Positions 2,839-34,104 of a stretch of DNA of 34,104 nucleotides are shown here, in pieces; position 1 is the first letter of the stretch; each line of letters starts with the position of its first letter. The stretch covers positions 1-34,104 of the forward strand of contig CAVVOP010000001.1 of assembly GCA_963749915.1 (NCBI GenBank). Direction: 5' to 3'. The notes beneath the pieces were generated by a model. That model saw only the letters and a program-made list of their open reading frames with translations. It had not been told where the DNA came from and made no database searches. The position numbers and the translations under genes are program-made. The DNA is from an uncultured cyanobacterium. Its GTDB lineage: Bacteria > Cyanobacteriota > Cyanobacteriia > Cyanobacteriales > Cyanobacteriaceae.

Positions 2839-3333
2839 ATGAAACTAACTGAAATACTGGAACGTCTGCGGCAGCCCGTTCCCCAGAATCTAATCAGCTA
2901 CAAAACCATTAAAGGCAACCGCATCGATTATATTTCTTGGGTCAATTTAGCAGATTTACTTGACGATCGAGCTGGTATCGACGGCTGGAGTTGGAGACTA
3001 GTTGACCAACAACAAATCGGCAACAGATTAACACAAGTGTGGGAGTTGAGCATTATCGGTGAAGATCGCTCTATTTCCCGTCAAGCCAGTGGAGATGAGA
3101 GCGTTGATTTAGATGCCTACGGTACTCCGTCAACCAATGTTGAAGCACAGTGCCTGAGAAGATGTTGTGCGAAGTACAATCTGGGCAGAATTCTGTGGAA
3201 GAAGGATAGAAAACAAGTTAAAAGTCCTCAGCTTCCACCTACTCCCCAAGCCGTCCAACCACAAAGCAAAAACGAAATCACCCGAGAAGAGTGGTTAAGT
3301 AAATTCAGCAGCAAAAAAGTAGAAAAAGTTTAA
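2839..3333 (+). CDS. Rad52/Rad22-family single-strand annealing protein
   Basis: LRQPVP..IDYISW..LLD..WSW and STNVEAQCLRRCCAKYNLG resemble the Rad52 fold; AAGGAG RBS. Confidence 0.7.
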   Translation: MKLTEILERLRQPVPQNLISYKTIKGNRIDYISWVNLADLLDDRAGIDGWSWRLVDQQQIGNRLTQVWELSIIGEDRSISRQASGDESVDLDAYGTPSTNVEAQCLRRCCAKYNLGRILWKKDRKQVKSPQLPPTPQAVQPQSKNEITREEWLSKFSSKKVEKV

Positions 3334-3398: not shown

Positions 3399-4638
3399 AT
3401 GATTTCACAAATACCAACCCCCCAAAGAACCAATAAACAAAGTACAAGGAGAATTTTATCCTTTACAAAAGCAAGAGTTAATTGCTCTAAGAAAAGCCAA
3501 GCTCATCAACAATACTGCTTTTATTCATTTAGCACTGCGGTACGAAAATCCATTTTGCGACCGCCCAGTAGAAGTTAATCCCAAAGAATTCGCCCTTTCT
3601 TGGAATATACCAGAGAGCAGTATTTATAAAGCAGTCGCTCAACTCAAGAAATTAGGGTTGATTTTGATTAAATCAGGCAAACTGCTGATTGAATGGATCT
3701 CCAAATCTGGGCAAACATTATCAGAACCAGCCCCCATTAATAGTCCTGAAACTGAATTATCAGATCCGAGAATAAATTATCAGATCCGGCAAAAAATTCT
3801 CAGATCCGAGAATAAATTCTCAGATCCGGCAAAAAATTCTCAGATCCGGCAAAATCGATCGCCAGAACCATTGCCAGAACTTGATTCTAATCTCTCTCGG
3901 ACTATTCAGACTAATTCAGACTTATCAGATCAATCAGAAAGATTGAAAGATAATAGAAAGATGGAAGATATACAAGATATACAAGAAGAGAGAATAACAA
4001 TTCAAGGCAACGGGGAATGGGGAACAGGGAACGGGGAACGGAGAACGGAGAACGGGGAACTGGGAACGGGGAACAGTGAAGGGGTGTTGAGAGAAAATAC
4101 TACTCCCTACTCCCTACTACCTACTCCCTCAGAAGAAGATGAGAGATTAGAAAATGAGGAGTTTATCAAATATTGTCAGGGCAAATTGCCAAAAGCGAGA
4201 GATATTAAGCGATACCTCCTCACTAATGATAAAACAACGGGCAATCGCATCCTCGAAAGATTATGGTTAGAGTATCAGCAATGGAAAACAGGAAAGAATA
4301 ACCCCAACTCCACGGGGTCAGAATATTTTGATAACCTCATTGACGAATACCGACTTAAAAGCCGAAGCCTAGAACAAATAGCATGGGAGAAAATCTCCTG
4401 GAAGGATAAACTACCTTGTTTTGATTTATGGTTGACCAGGGCTAAAAATTGCCGTGTTGATTACATCTTTACTGATGATAATAGCTTAGGTTATACCAGA
4501 AATTTAAGGACAGTATTTTATCGATGGTACGAACAGTATTATGTTAAACAATCAGAAACAACAATACCAGAAAATCCTCAAGCACTAGGTTTGATAAATG
4601 CTTTCCGGCAAATTATGGGAGGAGGTCACTATGCTTAA
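3399..4638 (+). CDS. Putative replication initiator-like protein with N-terminal winged HTH; +1 frameshift in a C6 tract
   Basis: The frame of ORF 3658-4638 is open back to 3424 (KEPINKVQGEFYPL...EFALSWNIPESSIYKAVAQLKKLGLI, HTH-like); ATG 3399 joins it if one C of 3418-3423 is removed. Confidence 0.55.
3755..3854 (+). repeat. Five tandem 20-bp repeats (iteron-like)
   Basis: CAGATCCG core at 3761, 3781, 3801, 3821, 3841; units AATT(A/C)TCAGATCCG-AGAATA or -GCAAAA. Confidence 0.9.
4012..4128 (+). repeat. Heptamer tandem repeats (GGGGAAC)n and (TACTCCC)n, STRR-like
   Basis: About 9 degenerate GGGGAAC units at 4012-4075 and 4 TACTCCC units at 4101-4128, inside the CDS. Confidence 0.85.
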
Positions 4639-6115
4639 ATCTAAAAATTATCCTGACTTTTCTCTCAATCCTAATAATATTGGAATCGGCGATTGGGTAT
4701 TTGCCAGGGGGAATGTCGGCAAAGTAACTGATATTCATGTTAATAACGGCAAGATGTTGCAGTTTTGGGTTAATTGGGATAGTTCTAATGTTCCTAGCCC
4801 CGAACTGGCTAACAATCTTCAGAAGGTTAATAAACCTATGGCGATCTCAGATAGTATTCAGGAAGTATCAGGAAGGATTAAGCTAACTTTACTTACCATT
4901 GATGTCAATCTACAGCAGAGGGTAGAGATTAATAATTCTGTGGTGGATGATTATGCTAATGCTTATTCTGAAGGTACAGAACTTCCTCCCATTACTGTCT
5001 GGAGAGAAGAAGGGAGTGGAGAACAGGGAGTAGGGAGTAGTGACAATAATCAATTATTTGATTCTCATAATTCTGAATTAACCACCACTGCCCGTTGCCC
5101 GTTGCCCACTCCCCGTTATTATTTGGTAGATGGATTCCACCGTGTAGAAGCGGCAAAACAAGCAGGAATAACTGAATTACCCTTTATCGAAAAATCTGGT
5201 ACTTACCGAGAAGCTTTATTATTTTCTCTGACGGTTAATGCTACTCATGGACTTCGCCGTAGTAATGCTGATAAACGAAAAGCGGTAATGACTCTACTTG
5301 AAGATTCTGAATGGAGTCAGTGGAGCGATCGAGTAATAGCCAAACAGTGTGGAGTCAGTAATCGCTTTGTTAGCAATCTTCGTCAAAAATTTATTCACAC
5401 GAATCAAGATACTTCTTGTGACAATGGTAGTTTAACTGTGAACGTTCACAGTTCCACTTCGCTAAAAGACAAAAGGAAATACCAGAAAGACGGTATAGAG
5501 TATGAGATGGATATTACGAATCTTAGCTCCAACCCTTCGGGTAATTCTGACTTTCCTCAAGATGATGTTTTTTCCGAAGATGTCATTAAAAATTTAGATG
5601 AAGATAATGAGGATAACTTAGAGTTAACAGAGAATGAGGATAATTTAGAGTTAACAGAGAATGAGGATAAGTCAGAAAATCCTACTAAACCCAGTAAAGG
5701 AAAAGAGAAAATAACTAATCCCTTATCTATAGGCGATCGAGTCAGAATCAAAGATAATCATTATTTTGGTGGGCGTGAAGGAGTCGTGACCCAGATTAGC
5801 TCTGTTAATTCTCTTGTGGTTGCTTTTGATAATGACCAACGAGAATTAATCCGACTCCAAGATTTAGATTTACCATCATTATCTAAACCACAAAAACCTC
5901 AGAAGAAAGAAATTCTGATTAAAGAAGGGCTTAATTATAAAGCAGGACAAGGTTGTAAATGGTATGTTGAGGTTGAGGAAGAAGTCTATAAAGGATTACA
6001 AATATATCAGAAGAGATTGAGTACTCCTACTCTCAATGGTGCTTTTTCCCGATTCTTGGTAGAAAAGGGTATCTTAAAAACTCATCCTGATAATCCTACT
6101 AAATTGCTTGATTTA

Positions 6116-7376
6116 ACCTGAGTTCGATATAAGAAAATAGTCTCAAACTCTTAACTTATATGAGTTTTGGGTTTATACTATTTTTCGCTATTTTACAATT
6201 CTTAATGTATTAAAAGTTCTACCCAGATTAATAAGTTAATTTTTCTGAATATTTATTAAATTTCATTGCTAATATCTCCTTTTTTTTTAAAATTAATTTC
6301 ATAATCAATATGTTATTTTTTAAAAATTAATTTTTATGGAATTAGAAACACTTTTCTATGATGTAGATGATTTCTGTTTAATTTTTGAACCATCTTTTAA
6401 TCGTCAAATTTTATCATCTAAACAGAAAAAAAGAATCAAAAATAGTCGATTATCCTTGAGTGAAATTATGACTATTATTATTTATTTTCATCATTCTAGT
6501 TATCGAAACTTTAAACACTATTATCAAAATCATATTCAGGTTTATCATTTTCAAGATTTTCCTAATTTGGTCAGTTATAATCGTTTTGTTCAACTTAAAT
6601 CTTCCGCTTTAATTCCTTTAATTTTTTATCTCAATACTCGTAAAGGATCATGTACAGGAATTTCTTTTATCGATACAATGGGTATTCCTATTTGCCACAA
6701 TAAAAGAGCCAAAAGAAATAAAGTTTTTGATAACTTGGCTCATTGGGGAAAAAGCTCTATAGACTGGTACTTCGGCTTTAAATTACATTTAATTATTAAT
6801 GAATTGGGAGAAATATTGGCATTTCAAATAACAAAAGGTAATGTGGACGATAGAAAAACAGTACCTTATTTAACGAAGGATTTATGGGGTCGATTATTTG
6901 GAGATAAGGGCTACATTTCTCAAGATTTATTTCAACAATTATGGCTGAAAAATATTAAATTAATAACACCATTCAAAAAAAAGATGAATAATAAATTATT
7001 AGAATTATGGGAAAAATTAATGTTAAGAAAAAGGTCATTAATTGAAACGGTAAATGATCAATTGCAAAATATCTCACAAATAGTTCACTCTCGTCATAGA
7101 AGTCCGGTTAACTTTTTGGTGAACACAATTGCTGGGTTAATAGCTTATACATGGCAAGACAAAAAACCAAAATTGCAGTTAGAAAAAGAAGAAATAAAGT
7201 TATTACCTACATTGGTAATCTGAGCAATTAAGTAATTTTAAAAAAGATAAAATTGAGGCTAAAAACAGCAATTTTTAGCTAAATTTGTGCTGTTTATTGG
7301 TTATGAATAATTAGAAAAAAGGGGAGAACACTTATTATAGCTAGCTTCCAGCATTATTGTTATATCGAACTGAGGT
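6116..7376 (+). mobile_element. IS982-family insertion sequence
   Basis: IRs ACCTGAGTTCGATATAA / TTATATCGAACTGAGGT (1 mismatch); 6-bp TSD GATTTA at 6110-6115 and 7377-7382. Confidence 0.92.
6336..7223 (+). CDS. IS982-family transposase
   Basis: YFGFKLHL, LFGDKGY, RSLIETVNDQL, HSRHRS motifs. Confidence 0.93.
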   Translation: MELETLFYDVDDFCLIFEPSFNRQILSSKQKKRIKNSRLSLSEIMTIIIYFHHSSYRNFKHYYQNHIQVYHFQDFPNLVSYNRFVQLKSSALIPLIFYLNTRKGSCTGISFIDTMGIPICHNKRAKRNKVFDNLAHWGKSSIDWYFGFKLHLIINELGEILAFQITKGNVDDRKTVPYLTKDLWGRLFGDKGYISQDLFQQLWLKNIKLITPFKKKMNNKLLELWEKLMLRKRSLIETVNDQLQNISQIVHSRHRSPVNFLVNTIAGLIAYTWQDKKPKLQLEKEEIKLLPTLVI

Positions 7377-17464: not shown

Positions 17465-18223
17465 CTATAGTTTCTTCCTCGCTCCACAAACTTTACCTAA
17501 CTGCCTTAAAGTCATCCCTGCCACAAGTGTGACACCACCAAATATATAGAGTGACTTATTCCCTGTTCCCAGACCGATAAACCTGACAATTCCAAAACCC
17601 ATCAAAATAGCAATAATTATCGGCATAATCACCACATATTGGGTATGCTGAGGATTTTGTTTATTCAGCCCCAGATACTCATTTTGAATAGCCTTCCTTG
17701 CAAGCATGGGATTTTTCCCTACATAACATTGCAACTCAGCTAATTTACAATCGCTCAAACTCAACCCCAACCTCTGTGCTTCATCCTTCATTATCTCCCT
17801 AATCTGCTTATCCTTCGGTAAATCTAGCTCCATTTCCAGCATCTCAAGGAAAATATCTTTACAAGGATTATTGTTAGCCACAGCACAAATAGTTACCCCT
17901 ATATTCATCAAATCCTCCAACCAATATCTAATTGACGTTGGTAAACGATTAGCAAAAGGAATAATTATCGTAGTATCCTCATCACATGACTCAGCGATCG
18001 CTTCCTTCAATTCATCTACAGTAAGTCGTCGCTCACCAGTACAGTCTCCCTTATTGTTAAATTTAGGTTCTGTAGTATCAATGCTTAAATCAAAAGCTAC
18101 CTTTTCAATAAATTTTTTAGCACTGCCTTTATAGGTGGCGATGGCACACGAATAATAATCAGTCAAGGAACAGAATAAATATTCTGGTAGGTATTCAGTA
18201 CTTCCTGTTTCCGCAATAATCAT
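17465..18223 (-). CDS. Hypothetical protein, possibly a degenerate P-loop fold, with two C-terminal TM helices
   Basis: 252-aa ORF; IIAETGS at the N terminus is at best a decayed Walker A; hydrophobic C terminus. Confidence 0.55.
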   Translation of the reverse strand: MIIAETGSTEYLPEYLFCSLTDYYSCAIATYKGSAKKFIEKVAFDLSIDTTEPKFNNKGDCTGERRLTVDELKEAIAESCDEDTTIIIPFANRLPTSIRYWLEDLMNIGVTICAVANNNPCKDIFLEMLEMELDLPKDKQIREIMKDEAQRLGLSLSDCKLAELQCYVGKNPMLARKAIQNEYLGLNKQNPQHTQYVVIMPIIIAILMGFGIVRFIGLGTGNKSLYIFGGVTLVAGMTLRQLGKVCGARKKL

Positions 18224-18277: not shown

Positions 18278-18865
18278 TTAAGCTAAGTTTTGGCGATAGC
18301 TCATCAAGATTGAATCCGCCACCTCCGACGGCGTAAACTTTGGGTTAGAAGCTTCCCTCGCATCCTCAATCTTTTCCTGTAAATCTTCCGGTAACTCATG
18401 CTCTTCCAATTTGTCAGCGATTGCCCTGACAACTAAATGAGGCATCGCAATTTCACGAGCCTTTAATTCAGCACCCTTACGAACAATATTATCTACGTCC
18501 ATATTCTCTTTGGGATCTTCAGGAGTAACATAGATTTCTTGGTTACTTATTTCTCCTTTTTTATTAGTAGTAATATCATTATTTTCTACAGTTACTAATT
18601 CACCCATTTTTTTCTCATCAAATCCTGTTCTACGACCATTAATTTCTATATGCTTCCTTAATAGCAAAAGTCTCTCGAAATCTTCATTACTAATCCAAGA
18701 AAGATTCTCATTATCTTTAATTGTGCTAATTTTTAAAAACTCTAAATCTTTGTAAAGAGTTGAATTTTTGACTCCAATTATTTCGGTTACGTCCGTAATG
18801 CGTTTATGTGTTTCCGCACTTATTTCGATTATTTCTATTGTATTTTTATTTTCTATGTCATTCAT
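18278..18865 (-). CDS. Hypothetical protein with N-terminal HTH-like motif
   Basis: ITDVTEIIGVKNSTLYKDL pattern. Confidence 0.6.
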   Translation of the reverse strand: MNDIENKNTIEIIEISAETHKRITDVTEIIGVKNSTLYKDLEFLKISTIKDNENLSWISNEDFERLLLLRKHIEINGRRTGFDEKKMGELVTVENNDITTNKKGEISNQEIYVTPEDPKENMDVDNIVRKGAELKAREIAMPHLVVRAIADKLEEHELPEDLQEKIEDAREASNPKFTPSEVADSILMSYRQNLA

Positions 18866-19908: not shown

Positions 19909-22900
19909 ATGAGTCGAGATGCGTTAATTGTCGGTATCAATAGCTATAATTACCGAGGCTTAAACAATTTGCAAGCTCCGGCTGAAGATGCCGAAGCGAT
20001 CGCCCTTCTCCTCAAAGATTATGGCGACTTCGATATTATTAACCGTCTTCCTGAAGCAATTAATGAGGAAAATAATGAACCCTACGTTGCCAAGAAGAAT
20101 AAAGTTTCTTTGTCTGCTTTAAAGAAAGCATTGGTTCAATTATTTAAGCCTGAAGGGAAAAATATTCCCGATACGGCTCTGTTTTATTTTTCTGGGCATG
20201 GATTGCGTGATACTCTTGGCATTTCAGAAGGATTTTTAGCAACCAGTGATGTTGACCCTAAACGAGAATTTTACGGCTTATCACTGCAATGGCTACGTCG
20301 TTTACTTCAAGAAAGTCCCATCAAAAAGCAAATTGTCTGGCTTGATTGTTGTCACAGTGGAGAAGTTCTTAACCTTGCTGACGCTAATCCGGGTGAATTA
20401 GGAAAAGCAAGGGATCGATGTTTTATTGCTGCCTCCAAAGAGTTCCAGAAAGCCTACGAAGAATTAGGAAGTCCCTACAGTGTCTTAACCAAAGTCTTGG
20501 GAGAAGGACTTGATCCGAGGCGATGCCCTCAGCAGTGGGTGACAAATATCAGTTTAACTGACTATATCAATAAACATCTCCAAGGTGCAATTCAAACCCC
20601 TTTGTTTACTAACTTTGGCGAACCTATTAACTTAACTCGCACTTGGGAAGTTTCACCACAGACAACTGAGAGCCAAGTTACTAGCGATATTTGTCCCTAC
20701 AAAGGATTGGAGTATTTTGATTGCAATGATGTAGATCCCAAATACTTTTATGGTCGAGAACAACTGACTGATCAACTGATAGATAAAGTTAGGCAGAGTA
20801 ATTTTCTCGCTATTGTGGGAGCATCGGGAAGTGGGAAATCTTCAGTGATGAGAGCTGGATTATTACATCAACTCAAACAAGGGAGAAAGTTATCGGGTTC
20901 AGGAGATTGGAAAATTCAGATTCTAGTTCCTGGAGAACATCCGATGGAGAACTTAGCCAGCTCATTCATTAACTCTGATTTATCTGATGTGGACAGAGCC
21001 GAACAACTAGGAAAAGCGAAAGAACTCTTAAAAAAAGGGGCTGAGGGATTAAAGCTATTAGTTCAGGTTTCTCAAGCTCCGAAAGTTGTTATTGTGGTTG
21101 ATCAGTTTGAGGAAGTTTTTACTCTTTGTAAGGATAAAAATGTAGCCGAAAGAAAACAATTTTTTGCCTGTCTTTTAGGGGCAGTAGAGAAAGCAGCAGG
21201 AAAATTGTGCGTCATCCTTGCCATGCGAGCTGATTTCTTTGGCAAATGTCTGGAACAAGAATATAGTGGTTTGGGGCAAAAGATTCAAGATAATTTAGTC
21301 TCTGTCACACCGATGAATCAAGAACAGCTTAGAGAAGCGATCGCTCGTCCGGCAAAAAGAGTTAATCTCAGGGTAGAGGAAGGATTGATTGAGCAGATGT
21401 TAACAGACGTAGAAGGAGCACCAGGAAGCCTGCCCCTGCTTCAATACACTTTGACTCAATTATGGGAAAAGAGAACTGACAATCAGTTGAAACTCTCGAC
21501 TTATGCCCAACTTGGTGGCATTGGCGGAACTCTAAATCAAAGAGCAAGGGAAGTTTACCAGGAATTTAATCCAGAACAACAGGATATAGCCAAGCATATC
21601 TTCCTCTGTTTGACGCAGTTAGGAGAAGAAACTGAAGACACCCGCCGAAGGGTGTTAAAAACAGATTTAGTCACTGCTAAATATAGTCAATCTGCCATTG
21701 ATGAAGTGATTCGAGAATTGGCAAAAGAAAGATTAATTGTTACCAGCCATAAAGTTGGCAAAGAGTCTACTGTCGAAGGAGTAGTGGTGGATGTAGCTCA
21801 CGAAGCTCTGATTCGCCATTGGGAGGATTTGCGCGGTTGGTTAGACGAGAGTCGGGATCCTCTCAGAAAACAGCGAGAGATTGAAAAGGAAGCGAAAAAT
21901 TGGCAACCACACGCAGAGGAAGAGAAGTCTCCAGATTATTTGTGGGGAGGCTCTAAATTAGCAGAAGCAGAAGTACTGCTACAAAAATACGCTACCAAGG
22001 TATCACTGTCGAATCTGGCTGAAGAGTTTATGGAAGCCTGTAGAGATAATCAGTTATGTTCTTATCTTTCCAGTCCAGAAATTGATACTTTTGACTATCA
22101 GAAATTAGAGGAGGAGGCAAAAGTCAAATCATACTTAACTAAAGATAAATTGCGCAGTTTTATGGAAGACGAAAGTAAAGAAGCGAAGGTAAGGCTGGCA
22201 GCATCTTGGTTAGTGAAGCAGTGGGGAGAGGACGTCCCTATGTGGATGGCAGAGACTGATGGTAAAGGGAATGTCTCTCTGAGTATCATAGAATCTCCAT
22301 CAATAGCAGTAGAAGATTTGGGAGATGGAATTAGCTTAGAAATGGTAGAAATTCCAGGAGGAGAGTTTTGGATGGGGGCGTCTGAAGGAGAAGAAGGTTC
22401 ATATAAGAATGAGTACCCGCAACATAAGGTGAAGGTTTCTCCTTTTCTTATAGGCAAGTATCCGGTAACTCAAGCCCCGTGGCGAGCAGTTGCTTCTCTG
22501 CCAGAAATCGAACGTGAACTTGTCTCAGAGCCATCATATTATAAAGGTGATGACCTGCCAGTGGAATGTATTTCTTGGTATGATGCGATCGAATTCTGTC
22601 AGCGACTTTCCCGAGCAACAGGAAGAGAGTATCGACTCCCCAGCGAAGCGGAGTGGGAATATGCCTGCCGGGCAGGAACTACCACACCCTTTCACTTTGG
22701 TGAGACGATTACACCAGATTTAGCGAATTATATAAAATCAGCTCGCGGTAAGACGACCCCTGTAGGCAGATTTCAAGTGGCGAATAGCTTTGGATTATAC
22801 GATATGCACGGAAATGTCTGGGAATGGTGTGCTGACCATTGGCATGATAACTATGAGGGAGCACCAGAAGATGGAAAACCATGGCTGAGAAGAATGGGGT

Positions 22901-23056
22901 TTTTTAGTAAGAAAGAGAATCAAGAAAGAGTGCTGCGCGGTGGTAGCTGGAACGACCACTCAGGACTACTGCCGTTGTGCTATCCGTTACGACGTCGTTC
23001 CCGACAATATCAATCTCAATATCGGGTTGCGTGTGGTTGCGGCGGCGAGGACTTAA
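19909..23056 (+). CDS. DGR target: caspase-like (C14) peptidase + nSTAND1-type NTPase + FGE-sulfatase/C-type-lectin-fold domain; +1 frameshift inside the VR
   Basis: ALIVGIN, FSGHG and LDCCHSG dyad; CPYKGL, GASGSGKSS, VVDQFEE, LPLLQY, VAHEAL; RLPSEAEWEYACRAG, GLYDMHGNVWEW, VLRGGSW. The TR-like frame ends [10 protein letters not shown] at TAA 23054-23056; as written the ORF runs to 23115. Confidence 0.92.
22930..23050 (+). repeat. DGR variable repeat (VR)
   Basis: 121 nt matching the TR; 12 internal and 2 edge substitutions, all opposite TR adenines, plus one extra base near 22963-22966. Confidence 0.96.
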
Positions 23057-23114
23057 TTTTCCCTTTTCACTCTTACCCTTTTACTCTTTACTCTTTATTT
23101 TTTATTCTTTTTTA

Positions 23115-23129
23115 GCGAGCGAAGCGAGC
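23115..23129 (+). promoter_or_regulatory. Candidate DGR target-recognition hairpin
   Basis: GCGAGC-GAA-GCGAGC within a T-rich tract about 65 nt downstream of the VR. Confidence 0.45.
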
Positions 23130-23172
23130 ATTTTTGTCGATTTCTATAAGCAAACTAAGCTTTTTTTTGAAG

Positions 23173-23517
23173 ATGAAAGACCTTTCTATTATTCAAAAAA
23201 CTTACGATTTAATCAAGTGGTATGTACCAATTTTGAACAAATTACCGAGAAATCATAAATTTCTCTTGGGCGAGCGCATGATTACGGAACTATACAATCT
23301 TTTAGACAGCCTAATTATGGCACAATATACTCAGCAAAAATTAGTTTATCTCGAACCTTTAAACGGAAGATTACAAATCTTACGCTATCAAACTCGCCTG
23401 TTGCTTGATTTCAGACTGATGGCCACCAATCGTTATGAATATGCCAATCAACAAATCAACTCCATTGGTCAAGAATTAGGAGGCTGGATTAAAACCCAAA
23501 AACAACGAGAAAAATAA
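23173..23517 (+). CDS. avd: DGR accessory variability determinant (four-helix bundle)
   Basis: LSIIQKTYDL, LPRNHKFLLGERM, IGQELGGWIK; located between VR and RT. Confidence 0.92.
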   Translation: MKDLSIIQKTYDLIKWYVPILNKLPRNHKFLLGERMITELYNLLDSLIMAQYTQQKLVYLEPLNGRLQILRYQTRLLLDFRLMATNRYEYANQQINSIGQELGGWIKTQKQREK

Positions 23518-23626
23518 TCAACCTCAGTTTAGTTTAAGAATTATTCGTGAGGATAGGGAATGGGGAACAGGGAACGGGCAAAGGTCAGAAATATTATATT
23601 TTCATTGTTAATAATCCCAAATCACC

Positions 23627-24697
23627 ATGAAACGTTATGGCAATCTTTACGGGCAAATAACCGATTATGCCAACCTCATTTCCGCCGCCAGAAAAGCTCA
23701 AAAAGGCAAGCGGTTTCGAGAAAATGTGTTGAGATTTAACTATCATTTGGAGCAGGAATTAGAGAAAATTAAAACTGAGTTAGAAACCAAAACTTATCAG
23801 CCAGGAAAATACAAAACTTTTGAGATTAAAGAGCCAAAACCGAGAATGATTTCTGCTGCTCCTTACCGAGATCGGGTTGTCCATCATGCCTTGTGTAATA
23901 TCATTGCTCCTATTTTTGAGAAGACATTTATTAATGACAGCTACGCTAATCGGGAAGGTTTTGGTACTCATAAAGCCTTAAGAAGATTTATTGATTTTGC
24001 TCGCTCCAGTCAATATATTCTCCAGTGTGATATCAAGAAGTATTTTCCCAGCATTGACCATCAGATTCTCAAACAAGTTATCAGGCGTAAAATTAAATGT
24101 CAAGATACCCTTTGGTTAATTGATACGATCATTGACAATAGTAATGAGCAGATTCGGGTAATTGACCATTTTCCTGGGGATGACTTATTAGCACCAATTC
24201 AGCACCAAAAAGGTCTTCCTATCGGTAATTTAACCAGCCAGTGGATGGGGAACATTTTTTTATCTCCTTTGGATCATTTTGTTAAAGAAAAATTGAGGCT
24301 TTCTAAATACCTGAGATACGTTGATGATTTTTCTTTATTCTCCAATGACCATGAGTTTTTACAAGAAGCAAGACAAGCAATAGAAGAATACTTAGCAAGA
24401 TTAAGGCTGAAAATTCATCCCCGTAAAAGCCAACTATTTGAAACCAAAAAAGGAGCCAACTTTTTAGGATTTTGCATTTTTAGCGATCGCATAAGAGTCA
24501 GAAGCGAAAACTTGAAAAGAGCAAGAAAAAGACTAAAAAGATTGCAACAGGAATACCATCAAGGTAAGATTAGCTTAGAGGATGTAAATCGTTCTCTTCA
24601 AAGCTGGGAAGCACATCTTAAACATGGTGATACCTGGCGATTGAGGCAACAGATATTCTCTTCTCTTGATTTTGACGAGAGAGGGAAGAAGGGGTAG
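23627..24697 (+). CDS. DGR reverse transcriptase
   Basis: [49 protein letters not shown]; 356 aa with no maturase or endonuclease extension. Confidence 0.96.
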
Positions 24698-24707
24698 GCA
24701 CTGTTAG

Positions 24708-24827
24708 ATGCTGCGCGGTGGTAGCTGGAACAACAACTCAGAAAACTGCCGTTGTGCTATCCGTAACAACAACAATCCCGACAATATCAATAACAATATC
24801 GGGTTGCGTGTGGTTGCGGCGGCGAGA
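24708..24827 (+). ncRNA. DGR template repeat (TR); the RNA probably extends into the downstream spacer to ~24980
   Basis: 120 nt, 35 adenines, 12 AAY codons in the target frame; identical to the VR at non-A positions. Confidence 0.95.
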
Positions 24828-25056
24828 GCTTTTCTCTGCCAGAACTGGTGGATGGGAATCTTCCGGGCGTGCCTAAGAAAAGTCCAGAACCTGCTCCTGC
24901 GATATGAGGTGACTCTATCCGAAAATAAACTGGGTCGCTCAGCTTGGTAGGTGAATACTGAAGAGTTGGTCGGCCCATCTAAATGATGAGTTATGAATAA
25001 ATTCAGCATTCATCATTTATTATTTGATAATAAGGGATAATAGAAAAAGCAATTGC

Positions 25057-25872
25057 TCACTCAATTAACAACATTAATTTAGATACATTCTGTTTATAAT
25101 CATTAGTAGCTTGAAGTAAATCAAAATCAAGTTTATCAATATTTTCCTGATAGTTTAAATACTGATTTGTCGTTCCCTCTCCATTACTATATTTGATGAG
25201 GAATACTTGAGATTGTAATTTTACTTTAGCTATTTTCTGATTAATTAATTTAATCCTTTCCCTACTTTCTTCAAGGTTTAAGAGAGCGATCGCCACTTCA
25301 TTTTTAATATTATCCTTCTCAATAATTAACTGATTTTCTAGCCTATCCTGATTATCCTTAAGCTGATTAATTTTAGTCTCAATATCAGTAATAGTAAGTT
25401 GATTTCTTTGCACATCACCACCACCAAAAAGATTCTGAATTAACTTAACTGGTTCTAAAGTAATAAAATTAGTCCAGTTCCGTGATTGATAATATCGAAT
25501 CTTCTCCTCTAAGTAGTTTATCTGTTCTCCTGTATTAGTAATTTTATCCTCCAGATTAGCAATTAAAAGGCTAGATGCGATCGCCCTCTGGGTCAAATAA
25601 TCATGGCAGTTGAGGACGGGGGAAGGACAGATTAATGATGGGGGAATTATGAATGAGGGGGGAATTATGAATGATGAATTATGAGTTATGAATGAGGAAT
25701 CATTTTGTGAATTCTCATTGGTTCCGAGTTCCGAGTTCTGAATTGTGGTTTCTAACCATGAGGGAGAGTTCGGCGTTGATTGTTCCGTCTGGGCTTTGGC
25801 TGAGTAATTTAATCCGACGGACGATGCCAGAATAAGGGCTAGTGGAATTACTGAGGCTTTGTAATTTTTCAT
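25057..25872 (-). CDS. Hypothetical secreted coiled-coil protein
   Basis: Signal peptide (..SAKA-Q), long coiled coil; in-frame low-complexity repeats at ~25630-25745. Confidence 0.65.
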   Translation of the reverse strand: MKNYKASVIPLALILASSVGLNYSAKAQTEQSTPNSPSWLETTIQNSELGTNENSQNDSSFITHNSSFIIPPSFIIPPSLICPSPVLNCHDYLTQRAIASSLLIANLEDKITNTGEQINYLEEKIRYYQSRNWTNFITLEPVKLIQNLFGGGDVQRNQLTITDIETKINQLKDNQDRLENQLIIEKDNIKNEVAIALLNLEESRERIKLINQKIAKVKLQSQVFLIKYSNGEGTTNQYLNYQENIDKLDFDLLQATNDYKQNVSKLMLLIE

Positions 25873-26285: not shown

Positions 26286-26567
26286 TCATGCCATTATCGC
26301 TTGTTTAATTTCTTTGGGTCTATTCAATGCTAAATCATAATTAGTCTGCAAATTCATCCAGAATTGAGGAGTAGTATTAAAGGCTTGAGCTAGTAACCAT
26401 GCAGTTTCAGGAGTAATCCCTCGTTTGCCTTTAATAATTTCATTAATCCGTTGTACTGGAATATTCAAATGATTAGCTAATGCGACTTGAGTGATATTCA
26501 TCGGTTCAAGAAATTCTTCTAAGAGAATCACTCCAGGATGGGTTGGTATACGATTAGTTGGTATCAT
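26286..26567 (-). CDS. higA: HigA antitoxin
   Basis: HPGVILLEEFL, HTH, KRGITPETA, FWMNLQ. Confidence 0.93.
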   Translation of the reverse strand: MIPTNRIPTHPGVILLEEFLEPMNITQVALANHLNIPVQRINEIIKGKRGITPETAWLLAQAFNTTPQFWMNLQTNYDLALNRPKEIKQAIMA

Positions 26568-26575
26568 CTTGTTAC

Positions 26576-26869
26576 TTAATTGTGGTAGTCAATAATTTGA
26601 ACTTGGGTAACTTTGCCGTTATCCCATTGAAAAATAATCCGCCACTGACTGTTTATCCGAATGCTGTAAAATCCTTTCAGGTTACCTTTGAGTGCCTCTA
26701 AGCGGTTGCCTGGTGGAACTTTTAATTCATCTAATTGTTCGGCAGCATTCAATATATCTAATTTTTTCAGGGCTGTTTTGCTGATTTGGGAGGGAATTTT
26801 TCTGGCTTCTCGACTTTCAACTCCATTAAATAAGTCGGCAGTACCCTGATTTCCAAAAGAAATAATCAA
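26576..26869 (-). CDS. higB: HigB (RelE/ParE-family) toxin
   Basis: PPGNRLEALKG, YSIRINSQWRIIF, IDYH; lies upstream of the antitoxin. Confidence 0.93.
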   Translation of the reverse strand: MIISFGNQGTADLFNGVESREARKIPSQISKTALKKLDILNAAEQLDELKVPPGNRLEALKGNLKGFYSIRINSQWRIIFQWDNGKVTQVQIIDYHN

Positions 26870-27073
26870 TTTACTATCTATTTGGATGTTAACTTCTTTT
26901 ATTTTAATGGTTTAACGGTTATCATGCAATGACTTGATCTAAAGAAGTGCAACCCAACCCCATCCACAGACGATCGCACTGAGCAAAAGAAGTTACAGTA
27001 AGGAACGCACCCTACAAGATCGGCGATCGCTTACTTATAGTGCGATCGCCGATAACTTCTCTGGACTTACCAA

Positions 27074-27404
27074 CCCACATTCCGCACGTCAAACTGTATA
27101 AATTCAGATTACGAGGTGAGAGGTTGAACAGTGATTGACTACGACAAGAAATACTCAGTGATTAGTTCTCTAGTTTATAAAGAGAACTCAGATAAATTAG
27201 TAGAAAAATGAGCAACGTTTAAGGGATAATTAAATTCAGTTTTTAATTTAATTTTGGAAATGATATTTTCAGAAGATATACAAGTTCAAACCATTAATCA
27301 TTTAGGATTAATTGCTGGAATTATAGATGAAATTGGTATTGAAGAAATTATTAATGATGCCCTCGGTATTGACGAGAGGGAAATCGTGACAGCAGGTCAA
27401 ATAG
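27074..27404 (+). mobile_element. IS1634-family left-end remnant with transposase N-terminal fragment
   Basis: End motif CCCACATTCCGCA; NHLGLIAGIIDEIG..INDALG..TAGQI, then an abrupt break. Confidence 0.7.
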
Positions 27405-27758
27405 CCCTCTTTTGTCATTTTCCGGTCCGGGAACGTCCGGGGGCAGTGGCTTCATGTCTTCGGGGCGGAACAAATTCCCGCGAATAAAGTCCAGAGCGAC
27501 ACCTCCGGGTTGGCTTTCCAGTTGGTGGAATCCCTGACTGAAGTCCACCAACTGATTTAAGATTGGGTGCTGAAAGGCATCATTGACTAGGTACAGTAAA
27601 TCTGAGGGGCTTTCTTGGGATTTGACGTTGATGGCGATGCGGTGTTTTTTCTGCCCATCGCTCACCAAGACTTGATAGTGGGGCGAAGGATCGGTCGCGG
27701 GATTGATTTGGCGCTCCAAAGCCCGACATTTCAATACTCCATAAGTTGCTAGAGACAT
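27405..27758 (-). pseudogene. YukJ/DUF2278-like protein, 3'-truncated
   Basis: YGVLK, SPHYQV, RIAINVKS, LDFIRGNLF, PGPEND, then runs into the IS1634 remnant. Confidence 0.7.
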
Positions 27759-27796
27759 TTTTTCAATACCTCTCTGTGTTGTTTTTTTTAGTGATA

Positions 27797-28981
27797 AGCT
27801 AAGACGCATCAATCTAGGATATAATTTAAGTCAGAAAATATTAAGATGAAAATCCATGCCTATTAAAAACTTTTTGTCGGATGAAGAAAAAAAATATCTC
27901 CAAAATTCCTTAAAAACGGAAAATAGATCAGAAGTTAGGCAAAGGATTTTGATATTTTTATTAGAAAATGATGGCAAAAATTATCAACAAATAGCAGATT
28001 TTTTAGGTTGTTCCACAAAAACAGTAGCGTATTGGGCAGTGCATGGTAATCCTAATAATGTAGATTCATTACAAGATAAAAGAAGAAAAGGAAATCAGAT
28101 AAAAGCAACGGATAAATATATCGAAATATTGTTAGAAGTGGTGGACACGACCCCCGAAGATTTAGGATATGAATTTGGGCGATGGACAGGGAAAAGATTG
28201 TCAGAACATCTCGAAAAAGAAACAGGAATTAAATTAAGTAAATCACAAATAGCGAGAATATTAAAAAGAAAAAAGTATAGTTATATTTGGGGAAAATATA
28301 GTTTGGAAGATAAGCAAAATAAAGAAGAAAGAAAGGCATTTAAAGAAAAATTAGAAGATTATATAAAAATAAGTAAAGAAAATCAGGAATTACTCCAGAT
28401 ATGGTTTTGGGATGAGTGTGGTTTTAGTTTAAGGGTAATAAGAAGAAAAACATGGACAAAAAAAGGAAAGAGAAAAAAAATCAAGGGACAAAGAAGAAGA
28501 GGAAGAGTAAATATCATGGGAGGCTTAAGATATTCAGATAAAAAAAGACTGTGCTTTATGATAGAGAAAGGGAACTCAGAAACATTTTATGAGAAAATAG
28601 AAAAGTTAAAAGAAGAAGTAAAAAAAGAATGGATAAGTAAGGGAAATAATGAAAAAGATTTTGAAAAAAAAGGACCAAAAATAATAATAATTTTAGATAA
28701 TGCGAGTTTCCATAAAAAGAAAGAAATAATAGAAAGAATAGAAACAAATTTATCAAATATAAGATTAGAGTATTTACCAGTATATAGTCCAGATTATAAC
28801 TTAATAGAATTAGTATGGCATTCGGCTAAAGAATTTATAGCTCATCGAGATTTTGAAAATAAAGAACAATTAGCAAAAACAGTGAATCAATTATTAAATG
28901 AAGGAGGTTTAGTGATTAATTGGAGCAAAAAAATCAAGAATAAGGGTGAATTAGTAAATGTAAGTTAAATGCGTCTTAGCT
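27797..28981 (+). mobile_element. IS630-family insertion sequence
   Basis: IRs AGCTAAGACGCAT / ATGCGTCTTAGCT flanked by TA on both sides. Confidence 0.9.
27856..28968 (+). CDS. IS630-family transposase
   Basis: FWDECGF, ILDNASFH, YSPDYNLIELVW; N-terminal HTH. Confidence 0.93.
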   Translation: MPIKNFLSDEEKKYLQNSLKTENRSEVRQRILIFLLENDGKNYQQIADFLGCSTKTVAYWAVHGNPNNVDSLQDKRRKGNQIKATDKYIEILLEVVDTTPEDLGYEFGRWTGKRLSEHLEKETGIKLSKSQIARILKRKKYSYIWGKYSLEDKQNKEERKAFKEKLEDYIKISKENQELLQIWFWDECGFSLRVIRRKTWTKKGKRKKIKGQRRRGRVNIMGGLRYSDKKRLCFMIEKGNSETFYEKIEKLKEEVKKEWISKGNNEKDFEKKGPKIIIILDNASFHKKKEIIERIETNLSNIRLEYLPVYSPDYNLIELVWHSAKEFIAHRDFENKEQLAKTVNQLLNEGGLVINWSKKIKNKGELVNVS

Positions 28982-28982
28982 T

Positions 28983-31160
28983 ACCATCCAAGAAATGATT
29001 TTAACTCTACTGACTGGAGATAATCCGAACTTATGCGTAGTGGGAGATGATGACCAAGGTTTATATCGTTTCAGAGGTGCGACTATCAGAAACATTCTCG
29101 AATTTAAAAATAAATTTCCTGAAGGTGCTTGTCAACAGGTAGAATTAACGATTAATTATCGCTCTCATCCTGAAATAATCCGTTTCTATAATAGCTGGAT
29201 GAGATCCCCTGACTGGATAATTCAAAATCAATCTTATCGCTATGATAAACAAATAAAGCCTCGCTCTGATGATTTCCCTGAGATACCTACAGTCATAAAA
29301 GTATCTGGTTTAAGTGCCGTTGATTGGCATGAGGAAATATTAGCTTTTTTATTGGAGTTAAGAGATAAAGGTAATTTAACCGACTGGAATCAAGTAGCAT
29401 TTTTATTTCGCTCGGTAAAAAATGACCAAGTAATAGGATTAGCAAAATTCTTAGAAGATAATGGTATTAGTGTTTACTCCCCTCGCTCAAATCAATTTTT
29501 TGACAGAGAAGAAATCAGGTTAATACTAGGTGCTTTAATCTTTTTATTTCCTCAATTTCCTACTATTAGAAAATGGGATGATGATGTTCATTTAGATATA
29601 TGGGATTATTACGATAATGATTGTTTTCGACTATTTGCTAATGAGTTACGCAAACCTGAAAATGAGGATTTATTGAAGTGGTGTAAACAGTCAGCGAAGA
29701 AACATTTAACTTTAATTGAAAATACTAATTATGCTTTTTCTGGGTTATTTTATCAGCTTTTACAGTTTCCTTTATTTAGTCATTATTTAGACGAAAAGCT
29801 CTTACTAAAAAAAGGTATTACTAATAGTCGATCGATGCGAAATTTAGCTATTTTTTCTCAGCTATTAGCTAAGTTTGAATACCTCAATAATATTAACGTT
29901 TTTTCTCCTAAATATTTAGATAGCTACCTGCAAAAATTATTTAATCAATTTTTCCGTTTTTTAAAAGACGGTGGTATTGATGAATATGAAGATGAGGCTG
30001 AATATGCCCCTAGTGGTTGTGTTTCTTTCTTAACTATTCACCAATCAAAAGGGCTAGAATTTCCTGTGGTGATAGTTGGCTCTTTAAATTCTGTACCCCG
30101 TCGTCAAAGTACAGATTTAGGAGTGATTTTAGAACATAATTACTATCATCGTCCACCTTTTGAACCTCTAGAAGAAATTAAGAATTTTGATTTTTATCGT
30201 CTTTTTTATACTGCTTATTCCCGCAGTCAAAATTTATTAGTTTTAACTTGTCTAGAAAAGCAAGGAAGAGGGAAAACACCTTCTAAATATTTCACCGAAT
30301 ATTTTGAGAGTATTCCTAATTGGAGATCGCCTTCTGTATCTTTCAATCAAATATCTTTAGAAAAGGTCAAAGATGTCAATATTAAAAGAGAATATTCTTT
30401 TACATCTCACCTAACTTTATATGAAAATTGTGCCGAACAATATCGCTTTTTTAAGGAGTTAGAATTTGCTCCTGTGCGCACCAGTCCGATTTTATTTGGT
30501 ACTTTAGTACATCAAACTATTGAGGATATTCATAATACTGTTTTAAGAGGGGAAGAAGGTAAGTTATCGGTAGAAAAAATTAGCAATTGGTTTGATACTA
30601 ATTATGCTTATTTAACTAAACGAGAAAGAGTCTATTTAGCCCCTGTGGTTAAGCAAATTGCCCTGCAACAGGTAATTAATTATTATCAGCGGCGTAATCA
30701 TAATTGGACTAGTATTAAAGAGGCTGAAGTTGATGTTTCTTTGGTTAAGGATGAATATATTTTAAGTGGTAGTGTTGACTTAATTGAAGGGATAAATAAC
30801 ACCATCGAAATTCTGGACTTTAAATCAGAGAAAAAACCAGATATTAATAATAGGAAAGATAAAGAAAAAATTAATCGTTATCGCCGTCAATTAGAAGTTT
30901 ATGCTCATATTGTCGAAAAAAGAACAGGGTTAAAAGTTAGTAAAACTCATCTTTATTATACTAGCGTTGATAATGGCAATCCCTATATTAGTTTTGAGGT
31001 AAATCCCCAGTTAATTAATACAACTATTCAAACTTTTGATAACGTAGTAAATAGAATCGAAAATAAAGATTTTAGTATTAAAGAGCGTCCGATAAAACTA
31101 TGTAAAGATTGTGATTTACAGTCTTATTGTGATGCTAAAAATTGGCAATTTAAGGAATAA
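28983..31160 (+). pseudogene. UvrD/REP-like helicase fused to a PD-(D/E)XK nuclease, 5'-truncated
   Basis: VVGDDDQGLYRFRGA, NYRSH, TIHQSKGLEF, YTAYSR; GSVDL..ILDFKS, QLEVYA, CKDC....YC; Walker A and B are absent and the IS630 end abuts. Confidence 0.82.
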
Positions 31161-32720: not shown

Positions 32721-34104
32721 GGCTCTCTTGGAATTGCCGTGCTTAACCACCATATCTAGTTTGGTCACAGAGAAATAACTATTGTGAGATGATTGAGATA
32801 GGAACTCAAAGGTCAACTCAATATGGATAACTATATTCACATTCCTCTCGATTTGCCAGACGTTAGGATTTTAGACGTTTCCAAGACTAGCAAAGGTCAT
32901 TGGCTGATTCGCATCGAGAGTACCCTTCACGGTACTACATGTCATCGATGTGGTCGCCAAATCAACCACTTTCATGGCTGGGACCAGCCCATCCAACTTC
33001 GACATTTACCGCTGTTTGAGACACCAGTTATGATTGAGTTACGACCAAAACGCTATCAATGTCATCACTGCGACGGTCAACCAACCACAACCCAACGGCT
33101 CAGTTGGCATGAGCTACGCAGTCCTAACACTAAGCCCTATGAACAGTGGTTACTAAAAATGCTCATTCATTAACTCCACTGTTGCAGATGTAGCGAGAAA
33201 ACTGGAGCTGACTGATGAGACTGTTGCTGGCGTACTCAACCGCTGGGTCACGACTAAAGTGAACTGGGATGAGTGGGAAGAAATTGAGGTAGTAGGTATC
33301 GACGAGATCGCACTCAAGCGGGGTCATAGAGACTATGTAGTACTCGTAACAGTACCTTTAATCCCCAAAGGTGTTGAAGTCTTAGCTGTCCTGAGTGACC
33401 GTAAAAAAGAGACTGTCGCCAACTTCTTGGCTTCTATTCCTCCTCGACTTCAAAAAACAGTCAAAAGTATCTGCACAGATATGTACCAAGGATTCGTGAA
33501 TGCAGCCCAAGAGCAACTACCCGAAGTCAAGATCGTCATCGATCGCTACCATGTGGCCCAAGCTTATCGAGACTGTGCTGATCAGGTTCGAAAACAGGAG
33601 CTCAAAGTTCTGAAACGAGAATTGTCTGAGGATGAGTATGAGCAGATTAAGGGAGCGATGTGGCCATTCCGTAAATGTCCGGCGAAGCTCAAGAATGAAG
33701 AGAAACAGCTTCTTGAGCGGCTGTTCAGCTACTCACCTCGGCTCAAACAGGCATATATTCTGCGAGAGGAGTTGACCGACATTTTTGAGAGAAACTACAC
33801 GAAAGGGGAGGGGAAAGATGCGATTCAGGCATGGTGTCAGCGGGTAGTTAAGAGCAACATTCATGAATTTAAAAGCTTTCTGGGAACCGTTGAGACTTGG
33901 CTGGACAAGATCAGCAATTACTTTGTAGAAAGGCTAACCAGCGGCTTTGTCGAAGGTTTTAACAACCGGGTAAAGGTTCTCAAGCGTCGATGCTATGGCA
34001 TATTTGATGTGGCTCACATATTTCAAAGACTGACACTGGACATCAATGGCTATGAAAAATTTGCCTTAACCTAACACTATATCTAGTGGCTATCACGCTA
34101 ATTA
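32721..34104 (+). mobile_element. ISL3-family element; right end runs off the window
   Basis: Left end GGCTCTCTTGGAATTGCCGTG; complementary-like CACGCTAATTA at the window end. Confidence 0.8.
32823..34074 (+). pseudogene. ISL3-family transposase, frameshifted
   Basis: CxxC zinc finger, GIDEIA, CTDM, IDRYHV, EGFNNRVKVLKRRCYG; CATT duplication at 33164-33171 splits the frame. Confidence 0.9.

Follow-up and report, generated by a model that had tools for sequence, protein, structure and literature searches.

A complete diversity-generating retroelement beside a caspase-nSTAND1-FGE sensor gene whose variable repeat carries an extra base, in an uncultured cyanobacterium

Diversity-generating retroelements (DGRs) that act on sensors of the caspase-nSTAND1-FGE kind form a class that has already been published from computational work (Kaur 2021, Dore 2024, Vallota-Eastman 2020, Evans 2025 preprint). 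Kaur 2021 (PMC8195603) described STAND (nSTAND1/NACHT)-FGS proteins with an N-terminal caspase, trypsin or TIR domain that are linked to a DGR reverse transcriptase (RT) and an accessory protein, and proposed that they are hypermutating invader receptors and potential analogues of adaptive receptors. In the sections of Dore 2024 (PMC10907252) on such targets, nSTAND1-FGE proteins diversified by DGRs are proposed to be antigen sensors, an idea that is called untested there, and most cyanobacterial clade 5E DGRs are said to serve vWA/MoxR ternary systems. Orthocaspase N-termini were found in cyanobacterial DGR variable proteins by Vallota-Eastman 2020 (PMC7517822) and were read as regulatory. 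A preprint (Evans 2025, PMC12642450) reports that the serine or cysteine proteases partnering Pepco proteins are fused to FGE or STAND sensors, and refers to modules of protease and effector that are linked to FGE sensors and to DGRs. Here, we describe a locus of about 5.6 kb in the genome of an uncultured cyanobacterium (4.69 Mb in 34 contigs). It lies on contig C1, the whole of which (34,104 nt) was analysed and is referred to as the window.

The window contains a complete DGR, consisting of avd, an RT gene, a template repeat (TR) and a structured RNA element 3' of the TR (Table 1). In the explanation that we favour, this DGR was recently active and has one target, the FGE/C-type lectin (CLec) sensor of a cytoplasmic caspase-nSTAND1 STAND NTPase that is paired with a Trypco1/Pepco gene. 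Taken as a whole, with the proposed mechanism and the present OFF state described below, this explanation is held with confidence that is somewhat better than even. The locus is compact, with the Trypco1 gene followed by the fused caspase-nSTAND1-FGE gene, avd, the RT gene and the TR with its RNA element, and the DGR genes are in the order target-avd-RT-TR. It matches the STAND-FGS systems of Kaur 2021 (PMC8195603) domain for domain, including the DGR RT and the four-helix accessory protein. What differs is the frameshifted variable repeat (VR) and the conserved Trypco1 neighbour, a combination that is not named in the main-text passages of that paper. No MoxR or vWA gene was found in the window. 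An earlier first-pass annotation, made from the window sequence, had recognised the DGR and the caspase-STAND-FGE architecture and had noted that multidomain signalling targets of DGRs were already known in cyanobacteria. All of this holds, but neither the frameshift in the sensor nor the Trypco1/Pepco gene had been seen.

The repeat pair was recovered exactly where the first-pass annotation had placed it. In a global alignment of the TR and the VR, 14 substitutions were found and all 14 were at TR adenines (6 A>G, 5 A>T and 3 A>C), while none of the 85 non-A positions of the TR differed. The TR includes 35 adenines in 120 nt, and the probability that 14 randomly placed changes would all hit an A is about 3e-8. 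The homology stops sharply at 24827/24828, with AGCTTTT in the TR against GACTTAA in the VR. The VR makes up the last 121 nt ahead of the canonical stop codon, inside the CLec/FGE fold at the 3' end of the target. The TR reads in frame and has 20 variable codons, of which 12 are AAY, as had been counted before, giving about 10^19 nominal combinations; the variable codon AGA could also turn into a stop. All VRs of the genome share GAGGACTT at the 3' end, and the TRs read GAGAGCTT or GAGGTCTCTT at this position. When the genome was searched with the window TR (TR1) for remote VRs, a check that the first-pass annotation had suggested, no second VR was found. The other TR1-like matches were only 75-78% identical and included non-A differences, and remote VRs served by TR1 were rejected. 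In environmental relatives, the TR and the 3' element are nearly invariant (1 difference in 300 nt and 6 in 479) and the target body is about 10% different (83-84 differences in 809-893 nt). As there is no difference at the 85 non-A TR positions, any inactivation of this DGR would be very recent.

The earlier statement that the repeats are identical except at TR adenines is correct for the substitutions but not for the length. The VR is one base longer than the TR (121 versus 120 nt), and the spacing between the repeats is 1778 nt in one half and 1777 nt in the other. This length difference was implicit in the coordinates first given for the repeats, and the frameshift that it causes was overlooked. 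The extra base is in a tract of four adenines, where AAAA in the TR aligns with GACTA in the VR, and is therefore an indel and not a non-A substitution. Because of it, residues 1019-1068 of the annotated target are out of frame. The protein reads VLRGGSWNDHS and then continues with 50 out-of-frame residues to a stop at 23115, while the end of the lectin fold (CRxAxR...G[FL]RVV) can be read only in the +1 frame. The canonical ending, RGG[SA]...CRS...G[FL]RV[VM], is present in 15 of the 16 FGE-bearing homologues examined, the exception being P0116, which indicates that the annotated frame is the aberrant one. An in-frame target would be 1048 aa long, which falls within the 1035-1111 aa spanned by these 15 homologues. 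As assembled, the target does not have an intact C-terminal FGS sensor, and would have one if the extra base were an artefact. The out-of-frame stretch corresponds to about 30 canonical residues and contains eight of the 12 AAY codons. With these last residues of the sensor replaced by 50 others, the encoded receptor is probably non-functional, that is, OFF at present, if the assembly is right. Literature searches on DGR frameshifts and variable regions found no report of a frameshifted VR; in the passages of Schillinger 2012 (PMC3521204) that mention frameshifts, they are described only for RTs.

Pfam domains identified in the target were Peptidase_C14 (residues 5-184, 3.9e-13), nSTAND1 (263-671, 2.2e-125; PF20703, 419.7 bits against a cut-off of 27.1) and FGE-sulfatase (811-1035, 9e-52). 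His97 (in SGHG), Cys148 (in DCCHSG), the Walker A motif (GASGSGKS, 304-311) and the Walker B motif (DQFEE, 398-402) are invariant in an alignment of 43 homologues. His97 and Cys148 are the predicted catalytic dyad, as judged from motif position and not from a structural alignment. The dyad, the Walker motifs and the C-terminal FGE/CLec domain described in the first-pass annotation were all identified, with the reservation that the canonical end of the last is out of frame as assembled. Also in agreement with it, there is no convincing transmembrane segment in the target, the best 19-residue Kyte-Doolittle mean being 1.63 and falling within the NTPase domain, and no signal peptide is evident. 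Sequence matches of the sensor include PvdO and TvpA, a DGR variable protein of solved structure (2y3c, 7e-18).

The caspase-nSTAND1 portion is a widespread chassis in cyanobacteria, with a match at E <= 1e-80 in 46 of the 401 genomes sampled from the phylum. In a protein search, 7803 of 8000 scored candidates matched, with 119 hits listed besides the query. Among these listed hits, most carry pentapeptide repeats and some WD40 repeats; the combination of caspase, nSTAND1 and FGE was found in 15, and nSTAND1 with FGE but without a caspase call in two. The C-terminal sensors on the chassis are interchangeable. No orthologue of the target was found in 19 other genomes of the same family, where the best match was 49% identical over residues 1-667.

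The Avd protein, which is encoded next to the RT, matched the NCBIfam equivalog DivGenRetAVD (NF033474) with 133 bits (cut-off 80) and Pfam bAvd with 2.6e-20. The RT carries the motifs IGNLTSQ and YVDD, and the avd and RT genes were thus correctly identified in the first-pass annotation. The SQ dipeptide in motif 4 is a hallmark of DGR RTs (Schillinger 2012, PMC3521204). Assignment to the DGR RTs was made from these motifs together with pairwise and profile scores. The RT is 32.5% identical to brt of the Bordetella phage BPP-1 over 94% of the query (E 8e-40), and RTs of other phages align too. The best group II intron RT in the PDB scored 87.6 bits (8.3e-24) and the retron Ec83 RT 25 bits, and the NCBIfam group II intron model was matched with 150 bits, under its cut-off of 300. 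The best solved relative was PDB 8ub7 (168 bits, 3e-48), presumably the Bordetella bRT, an identity that was not confirmed in a literature search and is not relied on here. Neither of the two signs that the first-pass annotation had named as speaking against a DGR, namely mismatches at non-A positions and an RT of the group II intron or retron type, was found. The BPP-1 DGR resembles that of the window in its homologous RT, its Avd, the A-specific transfer from TR to VR and the CLec-fold end of the target. It differs in that the window target is a cytoplasmic signalling protein and not a tail fibre, and in the location of the TR after the RT in the window. In environmental relatives from three sequencing runs, the spacer between avd and the RT gene is polymorphic, with an indel at 23612-23619 in which 108 other letters replace 6 bases.

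The element directly 3' of the TR is about 150 nt long and was found behind each of the three DGR RT genes in the genome, as well as in eight other cyanobacterial loci with which it was aligned. The RNAalifold consensus from the 11-sequence alignment has three stem-loops with 40 pairs, 18 of them showing compensatory changes; in one locus, 54 nt are inserted in a loop. An Rfam scan of positions 22,800-25,200 gave no match at E <= 1. The element is presumed to be a structured 3' domain of the DGR RNA, and it may be comparable to the spacer RNA region of BPP-1. It could be described as a conserved RNA domain of the cyanobacterial DGRs sampled.

Table 1. Positions of the DGR, its target gene and the Trypco1 gene in the window
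Feature	Position	Strand	Details
Trypco1 (Pepco-type) small protein, 127 aa	19447..19830	-	PF19493 1.3e-20; NCBIfam CU044_2847_fam 91 bits (cut-off 23)
DGR target gene as encoded, 1068 aa	19909..23115	+	Caspase, nSTAND1 and FGE domains
Caspase domain of target	19921-20460	+	Peptidase_C14
nSTAND1 NTPase domain of target	20695-21921	+	
FGE/CLec sensor of target	from 22339	+	In frame only to 22962 (residue 1018)
Variable repeat (VR), 121 nt, at target 3' end	22930..23050	+	14 A-specific substitutions and one inserted base relative to TR
+1 insertion site	22964..22968	+	Five VR bases versus four TR adenines (24742-24745); codon 1019 onward out of frame
Canonical-frame remainder of sensor, starting CRCAIR	22970..23056	+	Stop TAA 23054-23056; unread in annotated frame
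avd accessory gene	23134..23517	+	Open reading frame from TTG; likely start ATG 23173
DGR reverse transcriptase, 356 aa	23627..24697	+	IGNLTSQ and YVDD
Template repeat (TR), 120 nt	24708..24827	+	Begins 11 nt past RT stop; 35 A, 12 AAY codons
Structured element directly 3' of TR	24826..24973	+	Stem-loops 24826-24885, 24899-24920, 24935-24973

The Trypco1 gene is the only one in the genome and is divergent from the target gene, separated from it by a 78-nt intergenic gap. To assess the pairing, the 123 open reading frames (ORFs) flanking the 29 best chassis loci were scanned. Trypco1 adjoins seven of the eight closest caspase-nSTAND1 homologues (56-59% identity), the exception being locus L111, and one more distant homologue (L126), making eight of the 29 loci overall. 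The neighbouring Trypco1 proteins are 52-62% identical to that of the window, with a K[IV]TVECSFP core and, after it, a short charged tail in common. This conserved pairing points to Trypco1 as probably the predicted pore-forming substrate of the caspase. Prediction of a complex between the caspase domain (residues 1-255, 43-row alignment) and Trypco1 (9-row alignment) gave a score of 0.10 against a mark of 0.32, which speaks neither for nor against binding. A search of the PDB with the Trypco1 profile gave no credible sequence match, the best E-value being 0.046. Contigs with 76 other cyanobacterial FGE loci, which had been found with the whole target, included no Trypco1 homologue (0/76, tblastn) and a distant caspase in only five; this set was picked mostly via the generic FGE motif and is not a test of the pairing.

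At six distant chassis homologues (L114, L115, L118, L124, L125 and L128), a divergent ORF of 126-159 aa stands beside the caspase gene in place of Trypco1. None of the six had a Pfam or NCBIfam match. These ORFs may represent another family of protease-released effectors, perhaps EACC1-like, a link that is suspected and not confirmed.

The DGR in the window is the only one of the three in this genome that has an intact RT, an Avd and an in-frame TR. In DGR2 (C23:1-3245), the RT is split over three frames (398-568, 561-1109 and 1102-1446) and the template, TR2 (C23 about 1480-1612), contains an additional T that neither of its VRs has. One of these VRs is nearby (C23:2790-2922) and the other is remote (C21:764173-764297); both keep the reading frame, and most of their differences from TR2 are at adenines. 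The target gene next to this DGR (1991-2920) encodes a 309-aa protein consisting only of FGE, and an Avd-like fragment (3027-3218) follows it. DGR2 looks to have been disabled recently, leaving its targets 'frozen', unless contig C23 is noisier than C1. The RT ORF of DGR3 (C8:888069-889226) encodes 385 aa, is 65% identical to the window RT and continues into sequence like the 3' flank of a TR without the AAY-rich TR body. On the same contig, two FGE genes (C8:365271-366464 and C8:370988-371750), one with an Avd-like ORF beside it, have in-frame VR-like ends and no matching TR. To judge from these sequences, both of the other DGRs look decayed.

Comparison with the other described systems reveals further points of likeness and difference. 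Thiohalocapsa PB-PSB1 DGR 6 and the DGRs of clade 5D (Dore 2024, PMC10907252) likewise diversify a CLec/FGE domain carried on nSTAND1 STAND NTPases. The systems in that account also include some relatives with an N-terminal peptidase or TIR domain, several DGRs in one genome, loci shaped by transposons and nearby Trypco adaptors. The DGR 6 targets are described there as having EAD8 adaptor domains and a separate trypsin-like peptidase, whereas the caspase of the window is fused directly. A cyanobacterial host, a multidomain target, an orthocaspase-type N-terminus and a C-terminal CLec VR are shared with the proteins presented by Vallota-Eastman 2020 (PMC7517822), and the dispersed paralogues with remnant TR-VR homology reported there match the 'frozen' FGE genes on C8. 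The term NTPase is absent from the text of that paper, whereas the target in the window has an nSTAND1 NTPase. In SsPepco-SsAvs4, as presented in the preprint (PMC12642450), a small protein of the Trypco1/2 family is likewise found beside a STAND-linked protease and has a charged C-terminal tail after a conserved core. That protease is a trypsin-like serine protease that cleaves after a conserved Ile, and the phage portal is sensed via the Avs4 sensor. In the window there is a caspase, the tail is only 5-10 residues long, the sensor is DGR-programmed and the cleavage is a prediction. Literature searches on DGRs combined with STAND, caspase, NTPase, Trypco1, nSTAND1 and phage defence or NLR, which did not extend to supplementary files, found no experimental test of such a sensor.

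The NLR-like reading, in which a variable surface leads to oligomerisation and then to protease activation, agrees with the published computational proposals. In the mechanism that we propose, a complex of the RT and Avd would copy the TR RNA, misincorporating at adenines, and the cDNA would replace the VR, so that up to 20 codons of the sensor surface would be rewritten. A sensor variant that binds a ligand derived from an invader would trigger NTP-dependent oligomerisation of the nSTAND1 module, and the N-terminal caspase would then be activated by proximity. The caspase would trim Trypco1/Pepco into an active membrane pore, leading to cell death of the abortive-infection type. Provided that the assembly is correct, the extra base in the A4 tract would stem from the most recent rewriting event or from a slip after it. 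Further retrohoming could restore the frame, as the TR, the RT and Avd are all intact, and so are the 5' homology and the VR at its 3' end.

Several observations weigh against this explanation. The steps after retrohoming are ones that we infer: the path from sensor to nSTAND1 oligomer, caspase and Trypco1 pore draws on what the preprint (PMC12642450) reports of protease partners, and adjacency and its conservation are what is observed, with cleavage of Trypco1 by the caspase proposed from the adjacency alone. In the passages of Kaur 2020 (PMC7159879) on Trypco, it co-occurs with trypsin-like peptidases and not with caspases. The caspase domain had no PDB sequence match at E <= 0.01, and it scored 90 bits with the NCBIfam EACC1-type caspase model, below the cut-off of 140. 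In PADLOC v2, no Avs model matched the target, and the only hits besides the generic caspase (1e-17) were weak ones to the P-loops of mad3 and mad8; the target, pictured here as working in an Avs-like manner, is not classed as Avs there. None of the 21 public sequencing runs listed contained more than 0.18 of the sampled words and no RNA run was among them, leaving the frameshift uncheckable from reads. Contigs of relatives from four public runs are silent on the frameshift and on VR polymorphism, as none spans 22,800-22,975. Metagenome scans were uninformative, as a VR-specific 3' 24-mer gave no matches and the three matches to a shared 5' 23-mer were all TRs from another DGR lineage. On the same side stand the gaps between near-identical repeats: in 448 kb of genome-wide repeat alignments at >=98% identity, there were 346 gap openings compared with 3733 mismatches, and 278 of these openings were of a single base, 228 of them outside homopolymers.

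Since one-base gaps outside homopolymers do occur in this assembly, a consensus error at a heterogeneous VR is possible, and the +1 insertion would then be an artefact of assembly or consensus calling, with the real target in frame and the system ON. Only at the VR would a mixed population mislead consensus calling, and some small contigs have 3-5 gap openings per kb. A real insertion would also be unusual. The 76 FGE loci were each compared with themselves by blastn, and repeats of 70-260 nt were kept if they had five or more mismatches and if 80% or more of these fell on A in one copy. This gave 13 TR/VR-like pairs in nine loci. Of these pairs 12 were ungapped, one had an in-frame 3-nt gap and none (0/13) had a frame-breaking indel. 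Contig C1 itself, however, had only nine gap openings in 19,967 nt of repeat alignments at >=97% identity. The resulting 0.45 per kb is an upper bound for indel errors, as true divergence between copies is included, and corresponds to an error in at most about 5% of 120-nt stretches. Copies of the insertion sequences (IS) IS630 and IS4 aligned to C1 with no gaps in 7,827 non-self nt, full IS copies being resolved within contigs. A chimeric join of VR variants of equal length would not have changed the length, and the extra base is exactly in the A4 tract of the TR, where the RT misincorporates. On this evidence the extra base is rather likely to be real, and an artefact seems unlikely, though well worth keeping in mind. 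The locus might instead be in decay, with the target a fresh pseudogene and the DGR inactive like the other two in the genome. The frameshifted target, the RT of DGR2 in three frames and the extra T in TR2, the lack of a TR body after the DGR3 RT, the IS-rich surroundings and the absence of an orthologue from the 19 other genomes of the family are all in keeping with decay. Against this, the ORFs for the RT and Avd are undamaged and retain their catalytic motifs, the TR reads in frame, the complete agreement at non-A positions allows only a very recent inactivation, and in environmental relatives the TR and 3' element are far better kept than the target body. We regard decay as improbable.

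Two further readings concern what the system is for. The protein could be a regulatory or developmental orthocaspase acting in differentiation, homeostasis or programmed cell death signalling, with a ligand specificity tuned by the DGR, and not a sensor of invaders. Vallota-Eastman 2020 (PMC7517822), in discussing orthocaspase DGR proteins, argues for roles in signal transduction, differentiation or cell death, and the PADLOC system models match nothing beyond the generic caspase. However, the target is paired with a conserved Trypco1/Pepco gene, and the preprint (PMC12642450) reports Trypco1/Pepco to be a protease-licensed pore toxin in an Avs4 defence system. Sensors are swapped on one chassis (pentapeptide repeats, WD40, FGE), there are mobile elements and a toxin-antitoxin pair in the neighbourhood, and the distribution within the family is patchy. 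All four features are typical of defence genes, and a purely regulatory role is given little weight here. The other reading is a long shot. The DGR may be a reversible ON/OFF switch as well as a diversifier, with copying errors that occasionally insert a base in adenine tracts silencing a potentially suicidal caspase-Pepco sensor, and the window would then capture the OFF state. If this were true, silencing might follow, for example, the appearance of a self-reactive variant, and the intact TR would later rewrite the VR into frame. DGR2 would represent another route, in which targets are 'frozen' by disabling the template, as TR2 has gained a base and its VRs are in frame.

The surroundings of the locus in the window include four IS families and a HigB/HTH pair. 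The HigB-like toxin gene (26576-26869) and the HTH_3 antitoxin-like gene (26286-26567) are on the minus strand, about 1.3 kb downstream of the DGR cassette. An element of about 333 nt at 27072-27404 has at least 18 further copies in the genome with 97-99% identity (six in C21, two each in C3 and C5, and others). It resembles a miniature inverted-repeat transposable element or the end of an IS, and part of it lies within the 3' portion of a DUF2278 ORF (27351-27812, minus strand). An IS630-type transposase gene (27856-28968), with five more near-identical copies in the genome, is immediately upstream of an ORF for a UvrD helicase with a PD-(D/E)XK nuclease. The helicase-nuclease ORF in this region (27856-31160) also matches the PADLOC models for an RT-associated helicase and GajB, and it appears to have been cut short by the IS insertion, as the match to the UvrD N-terminal profile starts at position 231 of 271. 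The ISL3 transposase gene (32823-34074) is split between two frames, with a zinc-ribbon ORF in one and a DDE ORF in the other. Over 1,252 nt, one 4-nt gap is the sole difference from the copy in C16, and one of the two copies must therefore be frameshifted.

Elsewhere in the window, positions 3417-5341 are 98.5% identical to C9:37398-39322, with two gaps. They hold ORFs 3658-4638 and 4598-6121, which overlap in different frames and have no Pfam match, and the region may represent a split gene, or else a repeat or mobile element that has gone unrecognised. Upstream of the Trypco1 gene, ORFs 17465-18223 and 18278-18865 had no Pfam, NCBIfam or PADLOC match. They were rejected as members of the system because they are not conserved beside the homologues, and in L106, L108 and L109 a glycosyltransferase gene is found there instead. 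A promoter and terminator scan was no better than that of shuffled sequence, with 15 promoter-like sites compared with 11.9 expected and two terminator-like sites compared with 4.4.

What this locus adds to the published class is the frameshifted VR, the conserved pairing of the caspase with Trypco1 and the covarying RNA element 3' of the TR. The Trypco1/Pepco gene gives a concrete candidate for the downstream effector and makes the effector step testable. The locus is compact, with a single target and without MoxR/vWA partners, and would for these reasons be convenient for reconstitution, as would an in-frame relative such as P0004, a homologue that is 76% identical and has its own partner. 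Bacteria have no closer analogue of somatically diversified immune receptors than DGR-programmed STAND sensors. The frameshift, if real, bears on the cost of mutagenic retrohoming and on how a cell survives a self-reactive or broken variant of its own sensor.

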